From: Burkholderiales bacterium
GTDB lineage: Bacteria; Pseudomonadota; Gammaproteobacteria; Burkholderiales; SG8-41
Length of the DNA stretch: 64,000 nt
Assembly: GCA_038316355.1 (NCBI GenBank)
Contig: JBBQAO010000001.1
Coordinates: 23,076 to 87,075 of the forward strand
Direction: 5' to 3'
The notes under the pieces were generated by a model. That model made no database searches. It worked only from the letters and a program-made list of their open reading frames with translations, and was not told the origin of the DNA. A program made the translations under genes and the position numbers. Position 1 is the stretch's first letter; every line of letters begins with the position of its first letter. Shown piece after piece: positions 3,601-63,024 of the stretch.

Positions 3601-4425
3601 TTACGCGGCGGCGAGTTCGCGCACCAGCGCGGTCAGTTGGCCTGCGGGCCGCGCCAGTTCTTCGAGGATGGTGAAATGATTGAGGTGCGGCAAACGCACC
3701 AGGCGTCCGGGCAGGCCGGCCAGCACGCGCGCGGCGGCGCAGTCCGCGGACTGGCGCTGCAATTCAGGCAGCTCGCCTCCGCCACAGGCAAGAATCAGCG
3801 GCGCCGAACGCGCGGGCAGATTGAACAGCGGGCTCAAGCGGCGCGCTTCCGCCGTATCGAGGCCAAGCTTCGCATTAAGGTAATTCAGCCGCACCGGCTC
3901 CAGATCGAAAATGCCGCTGATGGCGAGGCCCGCCCTGATCACCGGCGCATCGAGCATCAGCGCCGCGAGATGGCCGCCTGCAGACCAGCCTGAAACCAGA
4001 ATGCGCTGTGGATCTCCCCCGTAATCCGCCGCGTGCCGCGCCAGCCAGTTCAGGGCGCTGCGTATTTCGTCGACAATGCCCGCCAGTGATTTCTCCGGCG
4101 CGAGGGTATAGCCGGCCATTGCGACATGTATCCCGTGCGCCAGGGGGCCTTCCGCCAAAAAGCTGAACGTCTCCTTGCGCCGCATCTGCCAGTAACCGCC
4201 ATGGATGAATACCAACAATGGCCCCGGCGCGGACGCAGCAAAATAATCGATGCGATTGCGCTCAGCGGTGCCGTAGCGCAGATCAAGATGCTCTGGCCGT
4301 GCTGCACGCAAACGCGCGCTACGCGCCTCAAAGTCGGCGAGCAACTCGCCACTATTCGCGACCGCCGCTGAATTGTCATACGCAGCGTCCAGCGCCGAGC
4401 GATCCATGTCGCGATACAGGCTCAT
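3601..4425 (-). CDS. alpha/beta hydrolase (arylformamidase/esterase-like)
   Basis: HGGYW oxyanion motif, GWSAG nucleophile elbow, NHF catalytic His. Confidence 0.85.
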   Translation of the reverse strand: MSLYRDMDRSALDAAYDNSAAVANSGELLADFEARSARLRAARPEHLDLRYGTAERNRIDYFAASAPGPLLVFIHGGYWQMRRKETFSFLAEGPLAHGIHVAMAGYTLAPEKSLAGIVDEIRSALNWLARHAADYGGDPQRILVSGWSAGGHLAALMLDAPVIRAGLAISGIFDLEPVRLNYLNAKLGLDTAEARRLSPLFNLPARSAPLILACGGGELPELQRQSADCAAARVLAGLPGRLVRLPHLNHFTILEELARPAGQLTALVRELAAA

Positions 4426-4498
4426 CGCACGATGAGGCAAAAACCCATTGGTCTCGCCAATTTACAAGTAATTGATTTTAAAGAAATAATTATTACGG

Positions 4499-5485
4499 TC
4501 ATTCGGCCTTGATGCCTGCGGCCCTGACCAGCCCGCCCCACTTCACCGCCTCGGCCTTCAGGTACTGCGTGAATTCAGCCGGGGTGTCGCCCACGGGCTC
4601 GAGACCAGCGCGCGCCATGCGGTCAGCGATCGCCGGTTCCCCCAGTGTCGCCACGATGTCCTTGTGCAATCGTTCAATCACCGCGCGTGGCGTGCCGCGC
4701 GGCGCCACCACGCCGTTCCAGTTGTTCGCCTCATAACCTTTCACTCCCGCCTCGGCAATCGTCGGCATTTCCGGGAACAGCGGTGAACGTCTGGTTTTGC
4801 CGACACCCAGGCCCCGCAGTTTGCCGGCGCGAATATGCGGCTGCGCGGTGGTGAGATTGGCCATCATCATGTTCAGACGACCGGCCACCAGATCAGCCAC
4901 CGCGGGCGCGCCACCTTTGTATGGCACATGCAGCGCCTCCACACCGGCCATGCTGGTGAACAGCGCCATCGCGAGATGACCCGCGCCGCCGACACCACTG
5001 GAGCCGTAGTTGTATTTGCCGGGGCTGGCTTTAAGTACCGTAATCAATTCCTTGACCGAAGTCGCCGGCATCGACGGATGCACCACCAGCAGATTGCTGG
5101 AACCGGCGATATTGGTGATCGCGACAAAGTCGCGGTCAAGCACGTACGGCACCTTGGCATACAGCGACGGATTCACCGCCAGCGGCGGGGTCGCCATCAG
5201 CAGGATATGGCCGTCGGGGGTTGCGTCCTTGACGATCTCGGTGCCGATGATGGTGCCGGCGCCGGTGCGGTTGTCGATCACCACTGGCTGGCCAAGGCGC
5301 TCGGAGAGGCGGGCGCCAGTGATGCGGGCCACGGTGTCAGTCGAACCGCCGGCGGAATACGGCACCACCAGACGCACGGGGCGTTGCGGAAAAGCAGTGG
5401 GGGACTGCGCGGAAAAAGCGGGGATGGCAGGAATCGCGGAAAACGCGATGGCCAATACCGGGAAAAAATTGCGCGTAATGTTCAT
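4499..5485 (-). CDS. Bug/TctC tripartite tricarboxylate transporter substrate-binding protein
   Basis: VPYSAGGSTD, PDGHILL, YGSSGVG, HVPYKGG. Confidence 0.92.
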   Translation of the reverse strand: MNITRNFFPVLAIAFSAIPAIPAFSAQSPTAFPQRPVRLVVPYSAGGSTDTVARITGARLSERLGQPVVIDNRTGAGTIIGTEIVKDATPDGHILLMATPPLAVNPSLYAKVPYVLDRDFVAITNIAGSSNLLVVHPSMPATSVKELITVLKASPGKYNYGSSGVGGAGHLAMALFTSMAGVEALHVPYKGGAPAVADLVAGRLNMMMANLTTAQPHIRAGKLRGLGVGKTRRSPLFPEMPTIAEAGVKGYEANNWNGVVAPRGTPRAVIERLHKDIVATLGEPAIADRMARAGLEPVGDTPAEFTQYLKAEAVKWGGLVRAAGIKAE

Positions 5486-5586
5486 GATGCACCTTACTGA
5501 CAAATTGCCGATTGTCCTTCGGGATTTCGGTTTTTTACCGGGAATTTTGCTGGAAATTTTTCTGGAAAGATTCGGGGCGACTGCAG

Positions 5587-6213
5587 CTATTCGCCGGCGG
5601 CACCGCCGCCATACGGAATGCGCGGCATCTCGAAACGGTCAGTGACACGCGTATACCCGCCCTTGCCCGCCAGGCGGCCGATCGGGTTGATCTGACCGAC
5701 GTCGACATGGAAACGTTCGTTGACGATGCCGTCGTGGTAATGGAAATAAACCACTTCACCGAATACCACGTGATAGGGCTTGCGACCCATATCGACGATC
5801 TGCATCAGCCGGCATTCCATCGCCACCGGTGCTTCGGCAATTCGCGGCGGCCGCACGCGACTCGAAGGCACCGCGGTTAATCCGGCCTTTTCGATTTCGT
5901 TGACTTCAGGCGGGTAATCGACGGCACAGATGTTCATCTTGTCCTTGATTGAATCGCTGACGATGTGCACGACGAATTCCGGAATCTCGCGAATATTGCG
6001 CACCGTATCCTTGGCGCCGCTGGATTTTTCGCCAACGGAGAACATCAGCATCGCCGGGTCGGATCCGATCGCGTTGAAAAAACTGAAGGGCGCGGCATTG
6101 GGCCCGTTACGACCCAGCGTGGTCACCAGCGCGATCGGACGCGGGGTCACGGTGCCGATCATCAGCTTGTACTGATCCTGCCAGGAGAGTTTGCTTGCGT
6201 CGAATTCGGCCAT
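5587..6213 (-). CDS. flavin reductase-like family protein
   Basis: PRPIALVTT, NAAPFSFFN, KDTVRNI, GRLAG. Confidence 0.88.
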   Translation of the reverse strand: MAEFDASKLSWQDQYKLMIGTVTPRPIALVTTLGRNGPNAAPFSFFNAIGSDPAMLMFSVGEKSSGAKDTVRNIREIPEFVVHIVSDSIKDKMNICAVDYPPEVNEIEKAGLTAVPSSRVRPPRIAEAPVAMECRLMQIVDMGRKPYHVVFGEVVYFHYHDGIVNERFHVDVGQINPIGRLAGKGGYTRVTDRFEMPRIPYGGGAAGE

Positions 6214-51407: not shown

Positions 51408-52304
51408 TCAGAACTTGCGCAACACGATGAAATCCGCCAATTGCGCGAGTCGCGCCCCGCGGTCGCCAAAAGGCGCGATGGCGCGCAGCGCTTGCTCGCG
51501 TAATTCGCCAGCCAGGGTTTTTGCCTGTGCAATACCCATGGCACTGACATAGGTAGGTTTGCCCTGTTCGGCATCCTTGCCGGCGGTTTTACCCAGCGTT
51601 GCCGTCGGCGCCTCGGCATCCAGCACATCATCAACCACCTGGAACGCCAATCCGACGGCCTTGGCAAAGGTATCGATGCGCGAGAATTCCTGAGCATTGA
51701 GCCCGCTGCCGCAACGCGCGCCCAATACCGCCGCGGCGCGGATCAGCGCACCGGTTTTGTGGATATGCATGAATTCGAGTTCCGGCACGCTCAGTGATTT
51801 GCCGACTGCGGCAAGGTCGATGGCCTGACCGCCGGCCATGCCGCGCGAACCTGCGGCGGCCGCGAGCAACTTGACCATTTCGAGTTGATCCTTCGCATCG
51901 TCAGCAAGGCGATATTCACCCAGCAACTGGAATGACAGACTTTGCAATGCATCGCCGACCAGCAAAGCCGTCGCTTCGTCGAACTCGACATGGCAGGTCG
52001 GCTTGCCCCGCCGCAACACGTCATCATCCATGCACGGCAGGTCGTCGTGCACCAGTGAATAAGCGTGAATGATTTCAACGGCAGCACCGGCTACGGTCAC
52101 ACGCTCAGGATCAGCCTGCGCCAGTTCGCCCGCGGCGTAGGCCAACAGCGGCCGCACGCGTTTGCCGGCACCGAGCACGGCATAACGCATTGCCGCATGC
52201 AGGCGCTGCGGCGCAATCTCCGGCTGCGGCAACGCGCGCTGCAAAAACGCTTCGATGCGCTGTTGCCCGGCTGCGGCCCAGGCCTGGAAATCGGGGGGGG
52301 TCAC
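51408..52304 (-). CDS. ispA: farnesyl diphosphate synthase
   Basis: GKRVRP, HDDLPCMDDD..RRG, FQVVDD, GKTAGKD. Confidence 0.96.
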   Translation of the reverse strand: MTPPDFQAWAAAGQQRIEAFLQRALPQPEIAPQRLHAAMRYAVLGAGKRVRPLLAYAAGELAQADPERVTVAGAAVEIIHAYSLVHDDLPCMDDDVLRRGKPTCHVEFDEATALLVGDALQSLSFQLLGEYRLADDAKDQLEMVKLLAAAAGSRGMAGGQAIDLAAVGKSLSVPELEFMHIHKTGALIRAAAVLGARCGSGLNAQEFSRIDTFAKAVGLAFQVVDDVLDAEAPTATLGKTAGKDAEQGKPTYVSAMGIAQAKTLAGELREQALRAIAPFGDRGARLAQLADFIVLRKF

Positions 52305-52320
52305 TGGGGAAGACCGGCGA

Positions 52321-52557
52321 CTACTCGGCCGCGCCGAAATTCTTCAGCACGCCGCTTTCCAGGATTTTCACCTGCTGCTGCGCATCCTGCAGCTGGGTCT
52401 GGCACAGCTTGAGCAGTTCCGCGCCGCGTTTGTAGGCCGCGAGCGACTGCTCCAGCGGCATCTGGCCCTCTTCCATGGCTTCAACAATCTTTTCGAGTTC
52501 CGCGAGGGCAGTCTCGAAAGTGGGTGCCGCCGATGAGGATTTTGTGGTTTTGGGCAT
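52321..52557 (-). CDS. xseB: exodeoxyribonuclease VII small subunit
   Basis: FETALAELEKIV..ME.GQMPLEQSL..YKRG. Confidence 0.95.
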   Translation of the reverse strand: MPKTTKSSSAAPTFETALAELEKIVEAMEEGQMPLEQSLAAYKRGAELLKLCQTQLQDAQQQVKILESGVLKNFGAAE

Positions 52558-52658
52558 GAGGGCCGCGACCCCGCAGAAAGGACAGGAAATGTAGCCCAAT
52601 CAGCGGGTTGCGGTCAATGACAGGCCTGCGGCCGTCCGCATCGCGGCGATGCAGCGGA

Positions 52659-53876
52659 TTACCTGTGCAGGATGTCGGATACGGCGCGTGGAATCAGGCT
52701 CGACATGCCCAGCGGTTTCAGCGATGCATCGTCACTGTTAAGGCAGATATCACGCATCGCCAGCAAGGCCTGCGCCGCAACGGTCTCGCTCCAGAACCAT
52801 CGCTCGATGGCTTTGGGCGCGAGATTTCCAGGCTGTGCCGCTGCAGCTTCATAGTAATACGCCTTGATGTCATCACAGGCGCGTTTAACTGCCATGCCGG
52901 CGGACACGCTCGTACCGATGGCCGGCACCGGCCTCGCGTCGAGATACAGTGCGATATGGCGCGCAGCCTCATCCACCGTGCCGCCAAACACACCGACTGT
53001 GGTGCGGCCGCGTCTTTTTCGCGAAAGATCATACCAGGGCATCAGTTGCGCGATTTCCCCGAACATCGCCTGTGCCAGCGCACCTGCCGCCACTTTCGCC
53101 GCAGCGAAACTGACCGGACAGGCAAACCCGCTTTCCTCTTCATCAGCGGCAGGTGCATTCTCGGGAAAATCCTCCAATACCGGACCAGCGCCATGTTCAA
53201 ACAGCGACAGCAGATGCAGCAGCACCTTGCGCTGGAAGTCCGGTTCGTTCGGTGCCCCGAAGGGCCGCCCCAGCATGAACGGCACCCATAATGCCCGCGG
53301 CGGTCTGATCGCCACTGTCTGTTCGCGGATCAGGCTGATCTGTGCGGTGGGTATGCCTTCCCGCTCCAGGTAGTGGCCCAGTGCGCCCACGGCGCACGTG
53401 CAGTTGGGTCAGACGGGCGATAGCAAAACTGCGTCGACCTTGTCCTTTTTCAGCAAACCGGCAAGCTCACGGGCCTTGGACTCGAGCTTGCGGACCGGTG
53501 CAGCACCCATGAACGAGTAGTGAAAATCAGAAACCGAGCCGACGATGCCGCCCGCGCTCAGTTCGTGCAGCCGGTGCAGCGGAAAAGCGACATTGATGTC
53601 TTCCTGAAATCCGGTGCGGTCAAAATTGACCGAGAGGTGACTCATCAGCAATTCTCCGGGGGGAGTGTCGCCGGGGATGACGCGGTAATCCGTCGCCCCG
53701 CTGTCAAAGGGCCGGTCGCTGCGCACATGCACGCCGGCTGTGGTGACAATCGCCACCCGGCGTTCAGGCAGTGGCGGTCCGGATACGAAAGGCGTGGTGC
53801 CAAAGTCCGGCAATTCCGGGATCTTGTCGAGATGGTGGCCTTGTTCGGTTGCGGAAAAATCACTCAGTCGTGCCAT
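52659..53876 (-). CDS. GrdB/PrdB-like selenoprotein, 405 aa, Sec at codon 156 (UGA 53409-53411)
   Basis: ORFs 53409-53876 and 52659-53390 are in frame and join as DAVLLSPV-U-PNCTCAVGALGHYLEREGIPT. Grd/Prd-B motifs VAIVTTAG, D.NV.FPL, YSFMG, PPRAL.VPF.LG.P. SECIS-like hairpin follows the UGA. Confidence 0.88.
53377..53408 (-). promoter_or_regulatory. candidate bacterial SECIS of the GrdB-like gene
   Basis: mRNA UGA-CCCA-ACUGCAC-GUGCGCC-GUG-GGCGCAC-UGGG: 7-bp stem with G-first loop at +19. Confidence 0.7.
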
Positions 53877-53915
53877 GTCATGCCCCTCCCTGGTTGATCA
53901 TCATGCAGATCAGCA

Positions 53916-54530
53916 TCACCGCTGGTGTTTGCCAACGTTCCAGCCACTTTTAGCCAGATGTTTCTCGCCGACATGGATCGGCTCTTCTTCAAGTGGTGTT
54001 GCCATGGTGTCGTTCCAGCGGTTCATGAAACCAAACATGGCAATGACCGCCACGATTTCCACGATCTGCCCTTCGGTCCAGTGCTGCTTCAGTTCGGCAA
54101 ACAGTTCGTCAGTAACCGCGTTCGGCTGTGCCGCCCCTGCGATTGCAATCTCCAGCGCCGCGCGCTCAGCAGCCGAAAACAGCGGGTGTGTACGAAACTC
54201 CCAAACGGCTTCCAGTTTTTTTTCATCAATGCCCAGCCCGAGCGCCGCCCCGGCCGTGTGCGCCATTCAGTAATGGCAGCCGTGCGCCCGACTCGCCACA
54301 TGCGCCAACATGCGCTTGAACGCCACCGTTACTTCACTTTCCGGATCCCAGACTGCTGCAGCGAGCTGCGACAGTGCCTGCACCAGTTTCGGCTTGCGCT
54401 GCATGATCAGCACGCTGTTGGGCACGAAACCCAGCACCCTGACGTAGGTCTGGAACGCGCCCGCCAGCTCGGGCGTGGTTTCCTGCGGCAACGGTGTCAG
54501 TCGCGGATCCGGCTTTTCGCTTTTTTTCAT
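53916..54530 (-). CDS. AhpD/carboxymuconolactone decarboxylase-like selenoprotein, 204 aa, Sec at codon 88 (UGA 54267-54269)
   Basis: ORFs 54267-54530 and 53916-54266 abut in frame as ASRAHG-C-H-Y-U-MAH, aligning with GCRYCTAH of the Cys paralog at 55635-56231. Confidence 0.9.
54234..54256 (-). promoter_or_regulatory. candidate bacterial SECIS of the AhpD-like gene
   Basis: mRNA +11..+33 CGGCCGGGGC-GGC-GCUCGGGCUG can fold (one G.G mismatch) with a G-first loop at +21. Confidence 0.55.
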
Positions 54531-54581
54531 GGCTATGCTGCTCCTGTTTTGAACTATCTGGTTGAATTCGAAGAGATATTT

Positions 54582-55163
54582 TCAGGGGTCGAGACAGCGC
54601 AGCATGATTGCGGCGATATCCTTTAGAGCCGCGCGATCAGGATTCGCTTTGCCGACCAGCCGCAAACCCTGAATTCCGGACACCAGGAAACGGGCGAGCG
54701 ATTCCACGCCCGCATCGGCGGCAATTTCGCCGCGCGCCTGCGCGCGCGTCAGGGCGACGCAAAACGCCCCCTCGATGCGCGCCAGGCTCTGACGGACGCG
54801 GGCCACTGTGGCGCGGTCGCCGGCGAGTTCAGCGGCGCAATTGCCGATGAAACAGCCCGCTCGCCCCGGACCGGCGACAATGCGGTCGATCAACTCACCA
54901 ACAAACCCTGCAAGGGCCTCGCGTATCGGCAGCGGCTTTGCCAGCGCCACTGTGATGCGTGCAACCGCCTCTTGCTCGTAGCGGGCCAGTGAACAATGCA
55001 GCAACGCGCGTTTGCCGCCGAACGCGGCATAGAGGCTGGAGCGGCTCAATCCGGTCGCCGCGCAAAGATCGGCCAGCGAAGTCGCCTGATAGCCTTTGAC
55101 CCAGAAGGCCTGCATCGCGCGCGCGAGCGCGATGTCGGGCTCAAATTCTCGCGGTCGGGCCAT
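54582..55163 (-). CDS. TetR/AcrR family regulator (NemR/ComR-like)
   Basis: MARPREF, GY.ATS, GLSRSSLYAAFGGK, GCFIGN conserved Cys. Confidence 0.92.
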   Translation of the reverse strand: MARPREFEPDIALARAMQAFWVKGYQATSLADLCAATGLSRSSLYAAFGGKRALLHCSLARYEQEAVARITVALAKPLPIREALAGFVGELIDRIVAGPGRAGCFIGNCAAELAGDRATVARVRQSLARIEGAFCVALTRAQARGEIAADAGVESLARFLVSGIQGLRLVGKANPDRAALKDIAAIMLRCLDP

Positions 55164-55618
55164 CAGCGCACGGCTTCGGCCGCAAGTCCTTCAAGGACCT
55201 TCAGCAGATTCGGCACGACCGCACATTCACCCGCGGCATGGCGGGCTGCGAGAAACCGGGGATCGTTGTATCCCAGCCAGACCTGCCCTGTTGCGTCCTG
55301 CCACGCCAGCGCCTTTAGCGGCAGGTCGATCCCGGCCGTCTGCGCGCACTCCATTAACGGCGTGCCACCCTGCGGATTGCCGAACACCAGCAACTCGGTG
55401 GGGCGCAGGTTTTTGCCGATTTTCTGCGCACCGGCGGCATGATCGACCCGCAGGAAAATATTCAATCCCTTGCCCTTCGCCGCGGCCTCAAAACGATCCA
55501 GCGTGTCCTTGACGCCATGGGGACTCTTCACGGCGACCAGACCGTCAGCCGCCAGGCTTGTGACGGCAACAGCCGACAGCAGCAATGCAGCAAGCAATCG
55601 CAAAATGCGCATCATCAT
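55163..55618 (-). CDS. DUF302 family exported protein
   Basis: Signal peptide, VDHAAGA, FGNP.GGTPLM, IDLPLK; stop overlaps the TetR start. Confidence 0.88.
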   Translation of the reverse strand: MMMRILRLLAALLLSAVAVTSLAADGLVAVKSPHGVKDTLDRFEAAAKGKGLNIFLRVDHAAGAQKIGKNLRPTELLVFGNPQGGTPLMECAQTAGIDLPLKALAWQDATGQVWLGYNDPRFLAARHAAGECAVVPNLLKVLEGLAAEAVR

Positions 55619-55634
55619 CTTCTTCTCCAGTTGA

Positions 55635-56231
55635 TTATTTTGCATGCACCCCGGGGGTCCACCCGGATGCCGTGAGATGTTGGCGGGCAAACTCCAGAGG
55701 ATGCTCTTCCAACTGGGTCGCCAGAGTGTCGTTCCAGCGGTTCATCCAGCCAAACATCGAGATCACCGACACGATTTCGATAATGGCGTCTTCCGAGTAA
55801 TGTCTCTTCAACTCATCAAAATGCGCGTCCGTGACTGAAGCCGGAGCACCGCCGGCCGCGACGGCCAGGCTCAGGGCTGCGCGTTCAGCCGGCGTGAACA
55901 GCGGGCTGGACTGGAACTGCCACAAGGCATGCAGCTTCTCATCCGCAACCTTGCCGCGCTCGACAGTGCTCTCGGCATTGTGCGCCGTGCAATAGCGGCA
56001 GCCGGCAGCGTTGCTGACCACTTCGGCGATCATGAAACGCAACGCCGGCGGTATTTCGCCGGCATCCACCATCACCGCATCGCGCAGTTCGCGTACCAGC
56101 CTGAATATGCGCGGCTTGCGAGCCAGAGTCAGCCAGCTGTTGGGCACATAACCGCGTTGCTTGCTGGCTTTTTCGAAGTCAGCGGCGAGTTCCGCCAGAC
56201 GATCCGCGGGCGCGGATGAGATTCGGGACAT
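55635..56231 (-). CDS. AhpD/carboxymuconolactone decarboxylase family protein (Cys form)
   Basis: GYVPNS, GCRYCTAH, F..AERAAL, MNRWNDT; GAGG RBS. Confidence 0.9.
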   Translation of the reverse strand: MSRISSAPADRLAELAADFEKASKQRGYVPNSWLTLARKPRIFRLVRELRDAVMVDAGEIPPALRFMIAEVVSNAAGCRYCTAHNAESTVERGKVADEKLHALWQFQSSPLFTPAERAALSLAVAAGGAPASVTDAHFDELKRHYSEDAIIEIVSVISMFGWMNRWNDTLATQLEEHPLEFARQHLTASGWTPGVHAK

Positions 56232-56350
56232 GGTAATTTCCTCTTGAATGGCGCATCTGCTGTATGGGACCGGGGAATCATCGTTTTCCGGTGACGGGAA
56301 TTGCTGCCGCGCTTAATTGCCGCCGCGCTTGTTTGAACTATTGCCGGATT

Positions 56351-56378
56351 ATTATAGAATGATCATTCCGGAATGCAA
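56351..56378 (-). promoter_or_regulatory. sigma70 promoter with TetR-type palindrome in spacer
   Basis: Minus strand TTGCAT-N16-TATAAT; perfect palindrome GAATGATCATTC at 56357-56368. Confidence 0.7.
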
Positions 56379-56525
56379 GCAGCGAGAGCATCCCGCGTCC
56401 ATGCTGCTGCGCCATGACATCAGCCGAATCATGGTAAAAACAGAGTGCAGTTGTAAGGATTACGGCGCTGCGCCGACCCACGCATCAGGATACGTCCGGA
56501 ATTACACGTTTTCAGGAGTCCATTG

Positions 56526-57491
56526 ATGCACGCCACCCTGCCCCTGATGCAAATCAGCGATTTCCCGGACATCCGCCGCCGCGCGACGGAAACACTGCAG
56601 GTCAATCTCGGCTACAAGTGCAACCAGAGCTGCCTGCATTGCCATGTCAACGCCGGACCCACCCGCACCGAGCTGATGGCGCTGGACACGATCAATGAGG
56701 TCATTGCCTGTCTCCAGTCCACCGCCATCAAAACTCTGGATGTCACCGGCGGCGCGCCGGAATTGAACCCGCATTTCCGCACACTGGTCGAGGCCGCGCG
56801 CAGCCTCGACGTACGGGTGATCGACCGCTGCAACCTGACCATCCTGTTCGAGCCCGGCCATGAGGACCTGGCGCAGTTCCTCGCCGGGCAGCAGGTTGAA
56901 ATCACTGCGTCCCTGCCCTGTTATCTGGAAGACAATGTCGACCGCCAGCGCGGCAAGGGTGTGTTCGGCACCAGCATCCGCGCGTTGCAACTGCTGAACG
57001 GCCTGGGTTACGGCCAGCCCGGCTCCGCGCTCAAGCTGAATCTGGTCTACAACCCGCAGGGCCCCGTGCTGCCCCCGGCACAGCAATCGCTGCAGCGTGA
57101 TTACCAGCAGCGCCTCGCCGACGGTTACGGCATCGTATTCAACGAACTGTTTGTCATCACCAATATGCCGATCCAGCGTTTCGGCAGCACGCTGGTGTCC
57201 AAAGGCCAGTTTGAGCCGTACATGAACCTGCTGAAAAACGCCCACCAGCCAGCCAACCTCGAAACCGTGATGTGCCGCTCGCTGCTGTCGGTGGACTGGC
57301 AGGGTTATGTCTACGACTGTGACTTCAACCAGATGCTCGACCTGCCGCTCGCCTGGAAAAACCGGCCGCGTCCGCACCTGCGTGAACTGATCGGCGCGGA
57401 TCTCGAACGCAATCCCATCGTGGTCAAGGACCACTGCTACGGCTGCACCGCCGGGCAGGGCTCCAGTTGCGGCGGCGCGCTGGGCAACTGA
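56526..57491 (+). CDS. arsS: radical SAM protein ArsS family (radical SAM + Cys-rich DUF3641-like C-terminus)
   Basis: LQVNLGYKCNQSCLHCH (CX3CX2C), TGGAPE, ASLPCY, YDCDFNQ, HCYGCTAGQGSSCGG. Confidence 0.9.
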   Translation: MHATLPLMQISDFPDIRRRATETLQVNLGYKCNQSCLHCHVNAGPTRTELMALDTINEVIACLQSTAIKTLDVTGGAPELNPHFRTLVEAARSLDVRVIDRCNLTILFEPGHEDLAQFLAGQQVEITASLPCYLEDNVDRQRGKGVFGTSIRALQLLNGLGYGQPGSALKLNLVYNPQGPVLPPAQQSLQRDYQQRLADGYGIVFNELFVITNMPIQRFGSTLVSKGQFEPYMNLLKNAHQPANLETVMCRSLLSVDWQGYVYDCDFNQMLDLPLAWKNRPRPHLRELIGADLERNPIVVKDHCYGCTAGQGSSCGGALGN

Positions 57492-57521
57492 CCGACCGGC
57501 ATCACACAGGATCGACTGCAC

Positions 57522-58907
57522 ATGATTGAACCTGCATTCGCGATTTATTTCTGGGGCTTCCTGCTGCTCTACGGCGGCGTAATGTATGCCATCTCGCCGC
57601 ACTCACGCAGTGACGCCAGTTTTTTCGGCGGCAGCGACGACGCGGGACGGCCCGCCACCGAATGGGCGCTGATGTGCAGCATTTTCATAAGTTGGATCTT
57701 TGCGAAATCAGTGACCAATGCCGCCAACCTCGGCGCAGCCTGGGGTGTCGTTGGCGGCCTTGCATACGCCACCTACTGGCTGTCGATTCCGCTGGCCGGG
57801 TTTGTCATTTACTGGCTGCGCACGCGCCACGGCGCCACCGGCCTGGTGCCGTTCCTGATCGGCCGCTACGGCCGGCTCGCCGCACTGGCCTTCACTGCAG
57901 CGATCCTGATTCGCCTCTATAACGAAGTGTGGAGCAACACTGCGGTGGTCGGCGCCTATTACGGCAAGGCCGGTGAATGGACTTTCATTGCCTCCGCGCT
58001 GCTGTTCACTGCAGTGACGCTGGTCTACAGCCTGAAGGGTGGTTTACGCAGCTCCATCGTCACTGACGTGATCCAGGCCGTGCTGTTCGTGATCGTGCTC
58101 GGCATCGTGCTGTTTCTGGTGCTGCCCAAGCACGGCGTCGGCACATTGCTTACCGTCGGCGATTTCCGCTTGAATGCCGGTGTCGATCTGCTGCTGGTGG
58201 CGCTGCTGCAGGTGGTGTCCTACCCCTTCCATGATCCGGTGCTGACTGATCGCGGCTTCATCACCAAAGAAAAAACCATGCTGCGCGCGTTCATCGTGGC
58301 TGGCGCGCTGGGATTCATCTGCATTTTCGCATTCAGTCTGATTGGCGTGCATGCCAAATTCGAAGGCCTGCCCACCGGCGACAACATGCCGGGCGCGGTG
58401 GCACTGGCCTTTGGCACCCTGCCCTATCTGTTGATGACGGTGGTGATGATCATGGCGGCCGGCTCCACGCTGGACTCAACCTTCTCATCGGTCGCCAAAT
58501 CCATCGGCCGCGAACTGCCGATGCTTGCCGGCCGCACACCGGGACCGCGCGCGATGGTCATTGGCATGTGGACCATGCTCGCCTTCGCCATCCTCGGTAA
58601 TGTGCCGATGATCGCCGGCACCGACATCCTGAAAGCCACCACCGTCAGCGGTACGATGGTGATGGGCCTGGCGCCCATATTCCTGCTGGCACCGCTGGTG
58701 AAATATTCGCCGGCGAGCTTCCATTTCGCATTCTGGCCGGGCATTGTGCTCGGCGTATTGCTCGCTGCCAGCCTGATCCCGCAGTCCTGGGCCATCGGCG
58801 ACGGCAAATATGCGCTGCTGCTCGGCGTCAATCTCTACGGCCTGTTGATCTGCATTGCCGGCTTCCTGTTGCCGCTCGCCTGGCAGCGGCTGCGCCCGGC
58901 GCACTGA
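57522..58907 (+). CDS. sodium:solute symporter-like membrane transporter
   Basis: About 13 hydrophobic segments, ISWIFAKS, YSLKGGLRSSIVTD..Q, STLDS. Confidence 0.8.
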   Translation: MIEPAFAIYFWGFLLLYGGVMYAISPHSRSDASFFGGSDDAGRPATEWALMCSIFISWIFAKSVTNAANLGAAWGVVGGLAYATYWLSIPLAGFVIYWLRTRHGATGLVPFLIGRYGRLAALAFTAAILIRLYNEVWSNTAVVGAYYGKAGEWTFIASALLFTAVTLVYSLKGGLRSSIVTDVIQAVLFVIVLGIVLFLVLPKHGVGTLLTVGDFRLNAGVDLLLVALLQVVSYPFHDPVLTDRGFITKEKTMLRAFIVAGALGFICIFAFSLIGVHAKFEGLPTGDNMPGAVALAFGTLPYLLMTVVMIMAAGSTLDSTFSSVAKSIGRELPMLAGRTPGPRAMVIGMWTMLAFAILGNVPMIAGTDILKATTVSGTMVMGLAPIFLLAPLVKYSPASFHFAFWPGIVLGVLLAASLIPQSWAIGDGKYALLLGVNLYGLLICIAGFLLPLAWQRLRPAH

Positions 58908-58915
58908 GCCTGCAC

Positions 58916-59908
58916 GTGCAACCCGGCCGCAGTTGCCCACTGCATTATCGCTACTCGCCGGCGTCGCTGAACCGGCCGCCGGAGATTGTCGCTGACACGC
59001 TGTATGTGATCGGCGGCCTGTATGGCAACTTGCCCGCGCTGCGCGCCGTAGCGGCACTGGCTGCTGCAGAGGCCAACCCGGCAACACTGGTGTTCAACGG
59101 CGATTTCAACTGGTTCAACAGCGACGCCGCCGGTTTTGCGGCAATCAACGAAACGGTGCTGGCGCACCACGCGCTGCGCGGCAATGTTGAAACCGAACTG
59201 GCCGGCGACAACGCTGCGGCGGGTTGCGGCTGCGCTTATCCCGACAGTGTCAGCGATACTGAAGTCGCGCGCTCCAACTCGATGCTCGCGCAATTGCGCG
59301 CAACTGCCTGCGCCTTTCCGGAATTGCGTGCAAGGCTGGCGGCACTGCCGATGAACCTGGTTGCGGAGATCAATGGATTGCGCGTCGCCATCGTGCACGG
59401 TGACTGCGAATCGCTGGCTGGCTGGTCTTATGACGAATCAGCCCTGCGCGATACCGCCGGCATCGCTGCGGTGGCCTCGCATCTCGCCGCCAGCAAAACC
59501 CGCATCATCGCCAGCAGCCATACCTGCCTGCCGGTGGCGCTGCGGCTATCCCGAGCGCAGAGTGACTGCATACTCATCAACAACGGTGCAGCGGGCATGC
59601 CCAACTTCGCCGGCACGCAGTTCGGCGTGATCACCCGTATTGCCACCACACCGACACCATCATCAGCGGCGCTGTACGGCACTGTCGCGGGCGGCGTACA
59701 CGTCGACGCACTGGCCGTGCATTACGATCACGGACAATGGCTGCGTGAATTCACTGCGAACTGGCCGGCGAACAGCGCAGGACACCTCTCCTATCATCAG
59801 CGCATCGCCAGCGGCCCGCGCTACGGCATCAACCAGGCGATGCACAACGGCATCCACATCAACTCCGCGCTGCTGCGGGGATTACGCTCCAACAGGGCCA
59901 TAAAATGA
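58916..59908 (+). CDS. metallophosphoesterase-fold protein with degenerate motifs
   Basis: GGLYGN, NGDF, RGNVE, VHGD, SSHT, plus GCGCAYP insert; GTG start. Confidence 0.65.
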   Translation: MQPGRSCPLHYRYSPASLNRPPEIVADTLYVIGGLYGNLPALRAVAALAAAEANPATLVFNGDFNWFNSDAAGFAAINETVLAHHALRGNVETELAGDNAAAGCGCAYPDSVSDTEVARSNSMLAQLRATACAFPELRARLAALPMNLVAEINGLRVAIVHGDCESLAGWSYDESALRDTAGIAAVASHLAASKTRIIASSHTCLPVALRLSRAQSDCILINNGAAGMPNFAGTQFGVITRIATTPTPSSAALYGTVAGGVHVDALAVHYDHGQWLREFTANWPANSAGHLSYHQRIASGPRYGINQAMHNGIHINSALLRGLRSNRAIK

Positions 59909-62049
59909 AAAAAAGCAAAATTCTGGTATTCGCACTGATTGCGGCAGGCATTGCCGCTTTTTTTGTGTTTGACCTGAAGCAATATTTCACGCTCGATTAT
60001 TTCCAGACGCAGCGCGCCGTCATCGACGCCGAGGTGCAAGCCCGTCCGCTGCGTGCGGCGCTGCTGTTTTTTTCCGCTTATGTCGCGGTGACCGGCCTGT
60101 CGCTGCCAGGGGCGGCGATCATGACGCTGGTGGCCGGCGCCGTATTTGGCCTGCTGTGGGGCACGCTGATCGTGTCCTTCGCTTCGACCCTCGGCGCCAC
60201 GCTGGCTTTCCTCGCCTCGCGCTTCCTGCTGCGCGACTGGGTGCAGGAGAAATTCGGCGACAAACTGAAACCGATCAACGAAGGCGTCGCCCGCGAGGGC
60301 GCGTTTTACCTGTTCGCGCTGCGTCTGGTGCCGGCGTTTCCGTTTTTCGCGATCAACCTGGTGATGGGTCTGACGCCCATCCGAACCTGGACCTACTACT
60401 GGGTCAGCCAGATCGGCATGTTCGCCGGCACCGTGGTCTTCGTCTACGCCGGCACACAACTCGGCGCCTTCAGAATTTCTGCGGGCCTGCTGTTCGCCTT
60501 CGCGCTGCTCGGCATTTTCCCGCTGGTGGCCAAGAAAGTGCTGGATGCTCTCAAGGCGCGCAAGGTCTACGCCGGCTGGATCCGCCCGGCGCGTTACGAC
60601 CGCAATCTCGTCGTCATCGGCGGCGGCTCGGCGGGGCTGGTGTCCTCGTATATCGCGGCCGCGGTGAAATCAAAAGTGACCCTGGTGGAGCGGCACAAGA
60701 TGGGCGGCGACTGCCTCAACACCGGCTGCGTGCCGTCGAAGGCCCTGATCAAGTCGGCCAAACTGCTGGCGACGATGAAACACGCCAGCCACTACGGCCT
60801 GAAAGACACGCAGGTACATTTTGATTTTGCTGAAATCATGGAACGCATACAGCGCGTGATCCGCGAAATCGAGCCGCACGACTCTGTGGAGCGCTACACT
60901 GCGCTCGGGGTCGAATGTCTGCAGGGCACGGCAAAAATCACATCGCCATGGTCGGTCGAGATCAAGACTGCGGCCGGCACGCAGACGCTGACCACCCGCA
61001 GCATCGTCATCGCCGCCGGCGCCCGTCCCTTCGTGCCGCCGATCCCCGGCATCGACGATGTCGGTTGCCTGACTTCGGACACGATATGGGATCTGCGGGA
61101 ACTGCCGAAGCGAATGGTGGTGCTTGGCGGCGGCCCGATCGGCTGCGAACTGACGCAATGTTTCGCGCGACTCGGATCAAAAGTCACACAGGTCGAAATG
61201 CTGCCGCGAATCATGATCCGCGAAGATCCGGAATTCTCCGGCATGGTGTTCGACAGATTCCGCAGTGAAGGCGTCGATGTGCTGGTCAATCACAAGGCAC
61301 AGCGCTTCGCCGTTGAAAACGGCGAGAAAGTGCTCTACTGCGAGACCGGTGGCGCCAGCGAGAAACGCGAAGTGCGCATCGTGTTTGACGCGCTGCTCTG
61401 CGCCGTCGGCCGCGTCGCCAACACCACCGGTTACGGACTGGAGGAACTCGGCATTCCGGTGACCAAGGCACGCACCGTCGAAGTCAACGAATTCCTGCAG
61501 ACCCGATACCCGAACATCCTCGCCTGCGGCGACGTCGCCGGCCCCTACCAGTTCACGCACACGGCGGCACACACGGCCTGGTACGCGGCGGTCAACGGCC
61601 TGTTCGGCGGCTTCAAAAAATTCCGCGTCGATTATTCGGTGATTCCCTGGGCCACTTTCACCGATCCGGAAGTGGCGCGGGTCGGCCTTAATGAAACCGA
61701 GGCCAAAGAAAAAGGCATCCCGTACGAAGTCACCACTTACGGCATCGACGACCTGGACCGCGCCATCGCCGACGGCAATGCCCACGGCCTGGTCAAAGTG
61801 CTGACCGTGCCTGGCAAGGACAGGATCCTCGGCGCCACCATCGCCGGCGAACACGCCGGCGACCTGATCACCGAATTCATCACCGCGATGAAGCACGGCA
61901 TCGGCCTCAACAAGATCCTCGGCACCATCCACATCTATCCGACGCTGGCGGAAGCCAACAAGTATGTCGCCGGCAACTGGAAGCGCGCCCATGCGCCTAA
62001 AAAGGCGCTGCAATGGGTGGAGAAATTTCACGCCTGGCGTCGCGGTTGA
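59905..62049 (+). CDS. DedA/VTT (SNARE-associated) domain fused to FAD-dependent pyridine nucleotide-disulfide oxidoreductase
   Basis: N-terminal TGLSLPGA..RLVPAFPF..NL; then GGGSAG, GGDCLNTGCVPSK, GGGPIGCE, FTDPE, HIYPT. Confidence 0.9.
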   Translation: MKKSKILVFALIAAGIAAFFVFDLKQYFTLDYFQTQRAVIDAEVQARPLRAALLFFSAYVAVTGLSLPGAAIMTLVAGAVFGLLWGTLIVSFASTLGATLAFLASRFLLRDWVQEKFGDKLKPINEGVAREGAFYLFALRLVPAFPFFAINLVMGLTPIRTWTYYWVSQIGMFAGTVVFVYAGTQLGAFRISAGLLFAFALLGIFPLVAKKVLDALKARKVYAGWIRPARYDRNLVVIGGGSAGLVSSYIAAAVKSKVTLVERHKMGGDCLNTGCVPSKALIKSAKLLATMKHASHYGLKDTQVHFDFAEIMERIQRVIREIEPHDSVERYTALGVECLQGTAKITSPWSVEIKTAAGTQTLTTRSIVIAAGARPFVPPIPGIDDVGCLTSDTIWDLRELPKRMVVLGGGPIGCELTQCFARLGSKVTQVEMLPRIMIREDPEFSGMVFDRFRSEGVDVLVNHKAQRFAVENGEKVLYCETGGASEKREVRIVFDALLCAVGRVANTTGYGLEELGIPVTKARTVEVNEFLQTRYPNILACGDVAGPYQFTHTAAHTAWYAAVNGLFGGFKKFRVDYSVIPWATFTDPEVARVGLNETEAKEKGIPYEVTTYGIDDLDRAIADGNAHGLVKVLTVPGKDRILGATIAGEHAGDLITEFITAMKHGIGLNKILGTIHIYPTLAEANKYVAGNWKRAHAPKKALQWVEKFHAWRRG

Positions 62050-62196
62050 ACCACAAGCACGGAACATGGCCCAAGCCATGGCTTTGGAGCCCTTTTATGA
62101 ACCGCCGGATTGTCCCTCGCGAACTTGAAATATCCGAACTTGAAATACCATCAACAGTTACTGAGTTATTTATAACTATTTGATTATATTGATAAA

Positions 62197-63024
62197 ATGA
62201 AAAAACTTCTGCTTACCCTGCTACTCGCGGCGCTGCCGCTGACCACCCTCGCCCAAACCTTCGACCACGAACACAAAGCCTGGGCCGCGTTGCTGAAAAA
62301 GCACGTGGTACTGATCAGCGGCAACAAGGCTTCGCAAGTCCGTTATGCCGGACTGATGCAGGACCGCGCCGCACTGAAAAGCTATCTCGACACGCTGGCC
62401 AGAGTCAGTCCGGCCGACTTCAAGGGCTGGGGCAAGAACCAGCAACTGGCGTTCCTGATCAACGCCTACAACGCCAACATGGCCGAGAAAATCCTTTTGC
62501 GCTATCCCAACATCAAGTCGGTGTGGGATTTCGGCAAACTATTCGGCAACCCGTTCAAGGATGATTTCATCGACTTGTTCGGCCGCAAGGTCACGCTCGA
62601 TTTCATTGAACACGAAACCATACGCGCGCCGGGCGCCTATGACGATCCGCGCATCCATTTCGCGGTCAACTGCGCATCGATCAGTTGCCCGATGCTGCGC
62701 GAGGAGCCTTATGTGGCCGAGAAAATCGACGCGCAACTGGAGGAACAGACCGTGCGCTTCCTATCCGATCACTCGCGCAACCGGGTCAGCGCCGACGGCA
62801 AACTTGAAGTCTCGAAAATATTCGATTCCTCCCCGTGGTACGGCGGTGATTTCCGCAAGGGGCACAAGGGCTACAAGACGCTGGAAGGATTTTTCGCGAA
62901 ATATGCGAATCTGCTCAGCGACAATGTTGAGCTGCAAAAACTTGTCCGCGACGGCAAGGCTGAAATCCGCCATCTGGATTATGACTGGGGCCTGAACGAC
63001 ACGGCTTCGGCTCGCGGCAAATGA
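62197..63024 (+). CDS. DUF547 family exported protein
   Basis: Signal peptide, LAFLINAYNA, DPRIHFAVNCASISCP.L, YDWGLN. Confidence 0.88.
   Translation: MKKLLLTLLLAALPLTTLAQTFDHEHKAWAALLKKHVVLISGNKASQVRYAGLMQDRAALKSYLDTLARVSPADFKGWGKNQQLAFLINAYNANMAEKILLRYPNIKSVWDFGKLFGNPFKDDFIDLFGRKVTLDFIEHETIRAPGAYDDPRIHFAVNCASISCPMLREEPYVAEKIDAQLEEQTVRFLSDHSRNRVSADGKLEVSKIFDSSPWYGGDFRKGHKGYKTLEGFFAKYANLLSDNVELQKLVRDGKAEIRHLDYDWGLNDTASARGK

Follow-up and report, generated by a model that had tools for sequence, protein, structure and literature searches.

Selenocysteine (Sec)-containing proteins of two families, 'proline reductase PrdB' (pfam07355, motif UxxC) and 'AhpD-like 1' (COG2128/TIGR01926, motif CxxU), have been listed as selenoprotein families since 2005/2008 in the tables of the Sargasso and Global Ocean Sampling (GOS) surveys (PMC1088965, PMC2398784). 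The Sargasso tables hold 42 PrdB and 27 AhpD-like 1 Sec sequences (PMC1088965) and Table 2 of the GOS survey holds 235 and 299 (PMC2398784), and the available text of both papers places PrdB and AhpD-like proteins among the most abundant marine/environmental selenoproteins. Both families reappear in the available text of reviews of 2022 and 2026. As far as that text of the surveys goes, the two families are treated separately, with no two-domain build, TetR control or pairing described. Here we describe a locus in which proteins sharing their Pfam/COG labels and Sec motifs are encoded next to each other, found in 64,000 nucleotides of a Burkholderiales bacterium (the window; GCA_038316355.1, contig JBBQAO010000001.1, positions 23,076 to 87,075). 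It is probably an autoregulated five-gene operon with two selenoproteins, for which we infer both the regulation and the redox steps.

A UxxC B-type gene beside a small CxxU gene, as in the window, also makes up the grdA–grdB operon of glycine reductase, with motifs as given in the available text of a 2026 review (PMC13188914). In the window, by contrast, the CxxU partner has the AhpD/CMD fold and no PF04723 match, and there are no GrdC/D/E genes. The section of that review on selenoprotein operons names grdA–grdB, prdB–prdC, frhA–frhD–hdrA(–glpC), Prx with SelW-like, Prx-like with AhpD-like, SAO and Tso, and a pairing of PrdB-like with AhpD-like is not among them (PMC13188914). No operon of this kind was met in the available main text of the literature searched, which included PMC2398784, PMC1088965 and PMC9312934, nor was any selenoprotein paper mentioning DUF302 found in it. 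An earlier note on this DNA, made from the sequence alone, had taken Sec forms of AhpD-like and PrdB/GrdB-like proteins as known, which the survey listings bear out, and knew of no description of the combination; the literature searched agrees, each family alone being known since 2005/2008. The two selenoproteins thus add members to families already known; new are the PrdA-less two-domain architecture of the larger one, the control of its gene by a TetR protein and, in certain clades, its coupling with selenoproteins of the AhpD-like or OsmC-like kind.

The five genes are all co-oriented on the minus strand between 52659 and 56378, in the order ahpD-like (Cys form, here ahpD-Cys), DUF302, tetR, ahpD-like (Sec form, here ahpD-Sec) and prdB-like (Sec):

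55635–56231, minus strand: AhpD/CMD-like protein, Cys form, 198 amino acids, motif GCRYC (Pfam CMD)
55163–55618, minus strand: DUF302 protein (Pfam DUF302), start taken at ATG 55618 behind GGAG
54582–55163, minus strand: TetR-family repressor, 193 amino acids, CifR-like (TetR_N and TetR_C_13)
53916–54530, minus strand: predicted AhpD/CMD-like selenoprotein, 204 amino acids, motif GCHYU (Pfam CMD; TGA column kept)
54267–54269, minus strand: predicted Sec codon UGA, codon 88 of ahpD-Sec, in the alignment column that holds the second CxxC Cys of the Cys paralog
52659–53876, minus strand: predicted PrdB/GrdB-like selenoprotein, 405 amino acids, motif PVUPNCTC (Pfam GRDB; TGA column kept)
53409–53411, minus strand: predicted Sec codon UGA, codon 156 of prdB-like, first residue of UxxC, with Cys there in homolog P0047

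In gene order the genes are separated by 16 nt, a 1-nt overlap of the DUF302 stop with the tetR start, 51 nt and 39 nt; Shine-Dalgarno-like sequences precede them, and terminator-like sites on the minus strand are intragenic only. Five close-packed genes with in-frame UGA at CxxU and UxxC were what the earlier note had described, and all of them were found where it had put them, with the UGAs at codons 88 and 156; its remark that standard gene calling yields four fragments also holds, since open reading frame (ORF) calling with translation table 11 splits the AhpD-like gene into 87 + 116 amino acids and the PrdB-like gene into 155 + 243. The DUF302 protein (PF03625, 75.4 bits against a gathering score of 23) would start at TTG 55690 in its longest ORF; its N-terminus is hydrophobic and, judged by eye, resembles a signal peptide, and the protein is putatively secreted. 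The organism is known solely from metagenome assemblies. Below, G, L and C with a number denote genomes (G000 being that of the window), loci and contigs.

Both genes almost certainly encode selenoproteins through UGA decoding directed by a Sec insertion sequence (SECIS). The presence of selA, selB, selC and selD, which the earlier note had left to be confirmed, is complete in G000. A profile search places selA (570 bits) and selB (426 bits), both above cut-off, on the window's own contig (C150:116330–122165), about 30–35 kb past the window end, and a tRNA-Sec with anticodon tca adjoins them (ARAGORN). The selD gene (416 bits, over cut-off; C4:509–1438, locus L011) carries one TGA at its GGGUGCK site, and from this active-site position SelD is itself taken to be a selenoprotein.

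The alignment of UGA with Cys that the earlier note had proposed comes out for both genes, with TGA or Cys at the same columns in homologs. In prdB-like relatives at 42–100% identity the TGA lies at one column in 94/94, and in ahpD-Sec relatives the column is identical in 30/30 distinct sequences at 56–100% identity, although these relatives are not independent samples. Among 31 related genomes, 13 have prdB-like matches, and each of the 18 places covering the site has exactly one TGA (44–100% identity), a nineteenth being a C-terminal fragment that ends short of it; for ahpD-Sec, 23/23 places with at least 56% identity have exactly one TGA, and six weaker places (27–48%) have none. The aligned sequences (14/14 PrdB-like, 7/7 AhpD-Sec) share the TGA column. 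Scanning a single genome for each species gave at least 597 confirmed prdB-like relatives, and in the best 80 of these loci, spread over Beta-, Alpha- and Gammaproteobacteria, Chloroflexota and Thermodesulfobacteriota, the TGA falls on the same aligned codon in every case (80/80). Cys takes its place in the PrdB-like homolog P0047 (369 amino acids, 50% identity, PVCLLC at the Sec column), and the AhpD-Cys paralogs read GCRYC in 4/4, residue for residue against GCHYU; an AhpD-like gene beside prdB-like at L111 is also of the Cys form (GCQYC). In other public metagenome contigs no letter differs at either TGA (X1, X3 and X16 for both, X15 for the AhpD codon alone), with X1 possibly representing the source sample of the window; these are DNA contigs, and no RNA run containing the locus came up.

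That the TGAs are plain stops, of pseudogenes or split genes, or specify another amino acid under a different code, is scarcely credible against this conservation, in which the protein is kept on both sides of the TGA down to 42% and 56% identity. Four separate table-11 ORFs, held as such in databases, would fit plain stops, and so would the unremarkable hairpin energies and the lack of an Rfam match given below. Against them stand the complete Sec machinery, the Cys homologs and the covarying prdB-like hairpin; moreover, TGA also ends the ahpD-Sec and DUF302 genes as an ordinary stop, which excludes a general code change.

Bacterial SECIS elements are stem-loops that stand close behind the UGA and have G/U at the apex, a rule that comes from work on E. 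coli fdhF. The hairpin that the earlier note had seen after each UGA is present in both genes and conserved 11–12 nt downstream:

53381–53397, minus strand: SECIS-like hairpin of prdB-like, 7-bp stem, loop GUG, beginning 11 nt after the UGA
54236–54254, minus strand: SECIS-like hairpin of ahpD-Sec, 7-bp stem, beginning 12 nt after the UGA

Compensatory change is strong in the first of these and weak in the second. In the prdB-like hairpin, 90.4% of cells are paired across 94 sequences (91 distinct), against 24–64% when the partner strand is slid as a control, compensatory changes occur in 5/7 pairs (27 cells), and none of 500 shuffles reaches any of the five measures used. Bases one and two of the loop never vary, and third-codon positions are near-fixed within the stem and variable just outside it. 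For the ahpD-Sec hairpin, 30 sequences show pairing in 96.7% of their cells (slid controls 28–64%), and it is consistent with a SECIS; three features count against it, namely a single covarying pair (C-G to U-A in seven sequences), shuffles that match two of the five measures (448/500 and 500/500) and a G.G mismatch in the stem of the window's own lineage, and it is thus the less well supported of the two. The support for both hairpins comes from conservation and covariation and not from single-sequence energy, which gives z-scores of 0.05 and 0.15 against shuffles, with a control stretch from the Cys paralog folding equally well. An Rfam scan of 52000–57000 at expect values (E) up to 10 returned five chance-level matches and no SECIS family.

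The best-described relatives of the larger selenoprotein are the B subunits of the Stickland reductases, PrdB and GrdB (PF07355, TIGR04483, TIGR01917/01918), with which it shares a homologous core of about 190 residues and a Sec that comes first in UxxC near the end of the GRDB profile. In these reductases PrdA and GrdE undergo self-cleavage to a pyruvoyl group, and the selenolate of selenoprotein B attacks the carbon next to a carboxylate. The PF07355 match (25.2 bits against 22) covers only residues 82–153, the 72 residues before Sec, on profile positions 273–345 of 347, and residues 35–224 match the PrdB model TIGR04483 best (E 7.8e-29), with GrdH, GrdF and GrdB weaker. The NCBIfam scores lie far below their cut-offs, at 100.8 against 300 for PrdB (TIGR04483), 40.9 against 65.45 for TIGR01918 and 34.8 against 602.2 for GrdB (TIGR01917). 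The 'GrdB-like' label of the earlier note is therefore right in the GRDB family and the UxxC motif, but the protein is closer to PrdB, falls below the NCBIfam cut-offs and carries an unannotated C-terminus of about 180 residues.

This C-terminal part (residues 225–405) has no Pfam or NCBIfam match, and the whole protein drew 0 matches in a sequence search of the PDB at E up to 1. An AlphaFold2 model built from a 10-sequence alignment (predicted local distance difference test 77.4, predicted template-modelling score 0.66) suggests an alpha/beta core at about 35–224 and an all-helical C-terminal domain at about 264–403, with low confidence at residues 81–91, 245–261 and 320–322; the invariant Cys253 lies within the low-confidence linker 245–261. 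Foldseek with this model found nothing in the PDB at E 0.001, and since the best rows, which were periplasmic-binding/Rossmann-like, had template-modelling scores near 0.2, no fold is assigned. In the ESM Atlas the 243-amino-acid C-terminal ORF meets unnamed 'hypothetical protein' clusters only. Among 8000 public candidate proteins scored, 2415 match PrdB-like at E up to 1e-5; the entries are mostly C-terminal halves of about 245 amino acids named 'hypothetical protein', and one full-length Cys form occurs among the 120 matches listed.

G000, which is 96.7% complete, contains just two GRDB-family genes, that of the window and a paralog on another contig (L035, C69:14100–21114, prdB-like at 4941–6146), which is 42–44% identical and has one TGA. 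No match to PrdA (TIGR04480) or GrdA (PF04723) was found in this genome by a search that is unvalidated, its 14 control genomes being silent too, and that did not include GrdE. Judged by its sequence, the protein is a distant two-domain relative of selenoprotein B and not a subunit of a Stickland reductase, as the sub-cut-off scores, the roughly 180 extra C-terminal residues and the lack of a PrdA/GrdA match indicate. On the same evidence, a role as B subunit in a true Stickland-type reductase of D-proline or glycine/betaine is very improbable, though the GRDB match, the PrdB model as best NCBIfam hit and the UxxC motif could be cited for it; the extra C-terminal residues are absent from PrdB. 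The family differs further from PrdB/GrdB in its length of about 400 amino acids, with an added helical domain lacking a family or fold match, in its neighbours, which are TetR, small redox selenoproteins or catabolic genes and not prd/grd, and in its hosts, which are Burkholderiales, Alphaproteobacteria, Chloroflexota and others, mostly aerobic-type proteobacterial lineages. The 'PrdB' label is abundant in environmental data, yet no PrdA/GrdA match accompanies it here, so the label probably hides an enzyme of other, undefined function.

The two AhpD-like proteins are 44–45% identical to each other and belong to PF02627 (Sec form 41.1 bits, Cys form 38.1 bits, cut-off 23). With the AhpD of Mycobacterium tuberculosis and the TIGR01926 proteins they share the CMD domain and a CxxC/CxxU motif followed by His, Sec standing in place of the second Cys in the Sec form. 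Against TIGR01926, their nearest model, both stay below the cut-off of 81.8: the Cys form scores 76.0 and the Sec form, with Cys put in for Sec, 69.8. In AhpD this second Cys is the nucleophile. Twelve sequences all keep residues G84, C85, Y87, U/C88 and H91. A second AhpD-Sec paralog in G000 (L124, C158:1161–1742, 64% identity, one TGA) lies on a 3.4-kb contig. Tandem AhpD-Sec pairs occur at L117 (G008:C8; 74–75% identity to that of the window) and L118 (G013:C200; 59%), with no prdB-like gene in the 6–7 kb fetched around them.

The regulator of the operon finds its closest solved relative in CifR, the epoxide-responsive repressor of P. aeruginosa (PDB 6nsn, E 1.2e-19 over residues 2–183), and both its TetR_N (41.1 bits) and TetR_C_13 (41.7 bits) matches are over cut-off. 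It resembles CifR in its full length, in a Gly-Cys pair and in having its operator, here a candidate, in a divergent promoter region, although the target genes of CifR are unrelated to the genes of the window operon. The earlier note had called it NemR-like, which did not hold up: NemR, of which a structure exists in the PDB, is absent among the 29 PDB sequence matches at E up to 0.001. G103-C104 align with the Gly-Cys pair taken as CifR Gly106-Cys107, allowing for a one-residue numbering offset, and according to the available text of the CifR study this pair is crucial to how epoxides are sensed, and a Cys of the Cys107 type occurs in 52% of 938 TetR regulators (PMC10827105).

Upstream of the first gene lies a promoter with a palindrome between its boxes:

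56373–56378, minus strand: −35-like box TTGCAT, 3/6 to consensus, kept upstream of ahpD-Cys in L024, L027, L039 and L040
56351–56356, minus strand: −10 box TATAAT, 6/6 to consensus, 16 nt past the −35-like box
56357–56368, no strand: perfect 12-bp palindrome, candidate TetR operator, filling most of the promoter spacer

The earlier note had spoken of a near-consensus promoter with a palindromic operator; the −10 box is perfect and the palindrome conserved, but with a −35 at 3/6 'near-consensus' was generous. Because of those three mismatches a consensus scan missed the minus-strand promoter, which was read by eye and is supported by its conservation; a repeat search did not pick up the palindrome either. 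The whole promoter/palindrome element precedes the orthologous first gene in near-identical form in L024, L027, L039 and L040 and is present as a variant in L026/L041, and the palindrome occurs with one change in six related loci. A similar TTCTG...N...TTCATAAT element with a CATAAT-type −10 stands between tetR and prdB-like in L043, L045, L047, L053 and L060, and through this position in other lineages the comparison ties the repressor to the prdB-like gene. A plus-strand promoter-like site at 56333–56360, that of the divergent ArsS gene described below, overlaps the palindrome. An internal promoter in the 51-nt tetR/ahpD-Sec gap was considered and rejected: the sequence there resembles the operator/promoter element found before prdB-like in other lineages, but L027 alone shares it.

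On these grounds it is likely that the five genes form one unit autoregulated by the TetR protein and induced by a reactive small molecule. Three points tell against such control: the weak −35 box, the fact that the palindrome is a single-copy element (one exact copy in the window, and three matches at two mismatches against a chance mean of 2.52) and the frequency of the sensor Cys among TetR regulators, which makes a conserved Gly-Cys only a weak pointer.

The conservation of the neighbourhood, which the earlier note had proposed as a check, gave a divided answer, with order, promoter and palindrome kept in a related Burkholderiales clade and most prdB-like genes unpaired elsewhere. The full five-gene order recurs in L024, L026/L041, L027 and L039, and a partial order, with a gene absent or an insertion, in L025, L028, L040 and L042. 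The insertion at L025 (G002:C14) is about 3.4 kb of extra DNA between TetR (290–868) and AhpD-Sec (4332–4943). In L037 and L054 prdB-like is flanked by AhpD-Sec genes on both sides, so that three selenoprotein genes follow one another (L037:5343–7857, L054:5370–7937), the second AhpD-Sec being of a subtype with MAHNAGGSL instead of MAHTAGAAL; in L043 and L032 AhpD-Sec is downstream of prdB-like. In a quick IQ-TREE maximum-likelihood tree, midpoint-rooted and with Shimodaira–Hasegawa-like approximate likelihood-ratio (SH-aLRT) support only, the PrdB-like protein of the window belongs to a clade that counts 16 rows (support 100); AhpD and/or TetR lies within 2.5 kb in 13 of them, and of the remaining three, two are on short flanks. 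Several bins titled 'Streptomycetaceae', 'Streptomyces sp.' or 'Bordetella parapertussis' (L038, L048, L050, L052, L053 and others) group with Burkholderiales, and these labels look unreliable.

In a sister clade, what comes directly after TetR and prdB-like is an OsmC-like gene interrupted in frame by a stop at UxxT, and OsmC-like UxxT is itself a listed selenoprotein family in the GOS table (PMC2398784). The stop is at the same column in 8/8 matches, four of them directly behind prdB-like (L047, L053, L059, L060), and reads as TGA in L053 (L053:7273–7812). The OsmC-like gene with an in-frame stop was also seen in L069, L045 and L101, and L045 holds AhpD-Sec too.

Several observations speak against a general partnership, and they weigh most against the mechanism of the earlier note, in which the AhpD-like proteins re-reduce the GrdB-like one. 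Within 2.5 kb, 69 of the 91 distinct prdB-like genes have no AhpD, TetR, DUF302 or OsmC gene, though some of these are on short contigs, and prdB-like neighbours elsewhere include TctC (25/80 loci), Ldh_2 (7), family III CoA-transferase, enoyl-CoA hydratase and MmgE/PrpD. The G000 paralog at L035 likewise comes after a pair of MmgE/PrpD genes and a gene for a TctC receptor, a catabolic-looking setting, and the PrdB-like paralog of a cultured relative, Zwartia hollandica (L084), is outside any TetR/AhpD context. Conversely, four genomes of the genus (G004, G012, G017 and G018) have AhpD-Sec and no PrdB-like match, and L040 and L044, within the clade, have no adjacent AhpD-Sec. The PrdB-like family thus has the look of a reductase of small molecules that serves in more than one context, with the link to TetR and small selenoproteins restricted to some clades.

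Turning to how such an operon could work, the CifR-like TetR protein would bind the palindrome in the promoter spacer and let go of it upon meeting an oxidant or electrophile, which its conserved Gly-Cys pair may sense. The selenolate of the PrdB-like enzyme would attack a small substrate and end as an Se–S bond. The AhpD-like CxxU and/or CxxC proteins could serve as dithiol/selenol–thiol shuttles that re-reduce the PrdB-like protein, or as peroxidase-type defences beside it, and electrons may enter via the flavin adenine dinucleotide (FAD) disulfide reductase of the divergent unit. The catabolic neighbours of the paralogs, together with selenoprotein B chemistry, point to a small substituted acid or electrophile as substrate, and to reductive cleavage rather than peroxide reduction. 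That the CxxU AhpD-like protein directly re-reduces the Se–S form of the UxxC enzyme is put forward tentatively, as something we would not count on, and AhpD-like and PrdB-like proteins acting as parallel defences under one regulator would be about equally plausible.

The genes could also be co-regulated and mechanistically independent, the AhpD-like and OsmC-like proteins acting directly as defences of the hydroperoxide or thiol peroxidase type and PrdB-like performing an unrelated reduction, with a stress-responsive TetR in common and no electron transfer between them. Known members of the AhpD-like and OsmC-like families reduce peroxides, the four genomes with AhpD-Sec alone and the tandem pairs at L117 and L118 show that the small selenoprotein occurs without PrdB-like, most prdB-like genes lack such neighbours, and the partner family is interchangeable between AhpD-like and OsmC-like. 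On the other side, a small selenoprotein from one or other of two families stands directly beside prdB-like, in varied orders, in the tetR-linked clades, and the pair of UxxC and CxxU mirrors the GrdB/GrdA motifs as given in the available text of PMC13188914. Full independence is accordingly possible, and we hold it somewhat doubtful.

Across a shared control region of 290 bp the operon faces a second, divergent unit, which is context and possibly co-regulated:

56523–62049, plus strand: divergent unit from ArsS to the FAD reductase

Its order (56523–63024) is an ArsS-family radical S-adenosylmethionine (SAM) protein, a membrane protein, a 330-amino-acid protein, a 714-amino-acid VTT/DedA–FAD reductase and DUF547. 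The ArsS-family protein (TIGR04167/DUF3641) scores 460 bits against a cut-off of 300 and is of the Cys form; the membrane protein has a weak solute-symporter match, and no family is named for the 330-amino-acid protein. The 714-amino-acid protein is a VTT/DedA membrane domain fused to a class-I FAD disulfide reductase with CLNTGC, which makes it a candidate entry point for NAD(P)H electrons towards the thiol/selenol proteins. ArsS and the membrane protein lie beside the operon in L024, L026–L028 and L039–L042, with further genes where the flank reaches, and this adjacency, being confined to one genus, is weak evidence for such a role of the reductase.

The same unit allows the five genes to be read as one arm of a divergent regulon of nine or more genes around the ArsS radical SAM protein, in which the permease would import an organo-metalloid or S/Se compound, ArsS and PrdB-like would transform it, and the FAD reductase and AhpD-like proteins would supply electrons. 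The clear ArsS match, the control region and palindrome that it shares with the operon, the recurrence of ArsS and the membrane protein in the related loci and the CLNTGC reductase with its membrane domain would all suit this, as would the listing of TIGR04167 itself as a selenoprotein family in the available text of PMC13188914. Yet we think it unlikely, as ArsS adjacency is limited to the genus-level clade of the window and may be inherited rather than selected; L037, L043, L045 and L054 have TetR, AhpD-Sec and PrdB-like with no ArsS within 6 kb. No arsM or other arsenic gene was seen, although none was searched for.

An autoregulated operon with two selenoproteins, as preferred here, gives PrdB-like proteins a testable context, with repressor and operator candidates, selenoprotein redox partners and a nearby candidate for an NAD(P)H-linked reductase. 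If the partnership is true, GrdA/GrdB would be joined by another two-selenoprotein reductase, built independently of it; should it prove false, uncultured Burkholderiales would still offer in this locus a clean case of a stress regulon that depends on selenium. More speculatively, and as a long shot, the PrdB-like proteins of about 400 amino acids might be a self-contained selenoenzyme class of non-Stickland bacteria, represented by the loci of the species-representative scan (at least 597, of which the 80 examined all have Sec). The helical domain would replace PrdA, and Cys253 would be a third redox residue or the site of a pyruvoyl self-cleavage; in the tetR clades there would be a two-selenoprotein relay with the CxxU (AhpD-like) or UxxT (OsmC-like) partner, a counterpart of GrdB–GrdA without homology to it, fed with NAD(P)H via the membrane-anchored FAD reductase, and a CifR-like electrophile switch. 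The splitting of both genes is in any case a systematic annotation failure, thousands of records carrying the C-terminal halves under the name 'hypothetical protein'.

Downstream of the operon, on the same strand, lie the housekeeping genes xseB (52321–52599) and that of farnesyl diphosphate synthase (51408–52304). Nothing terminator-like was seen between the prdB-like stop and xseB, and a promoter-like site occurs near xseB at 52617–52588.

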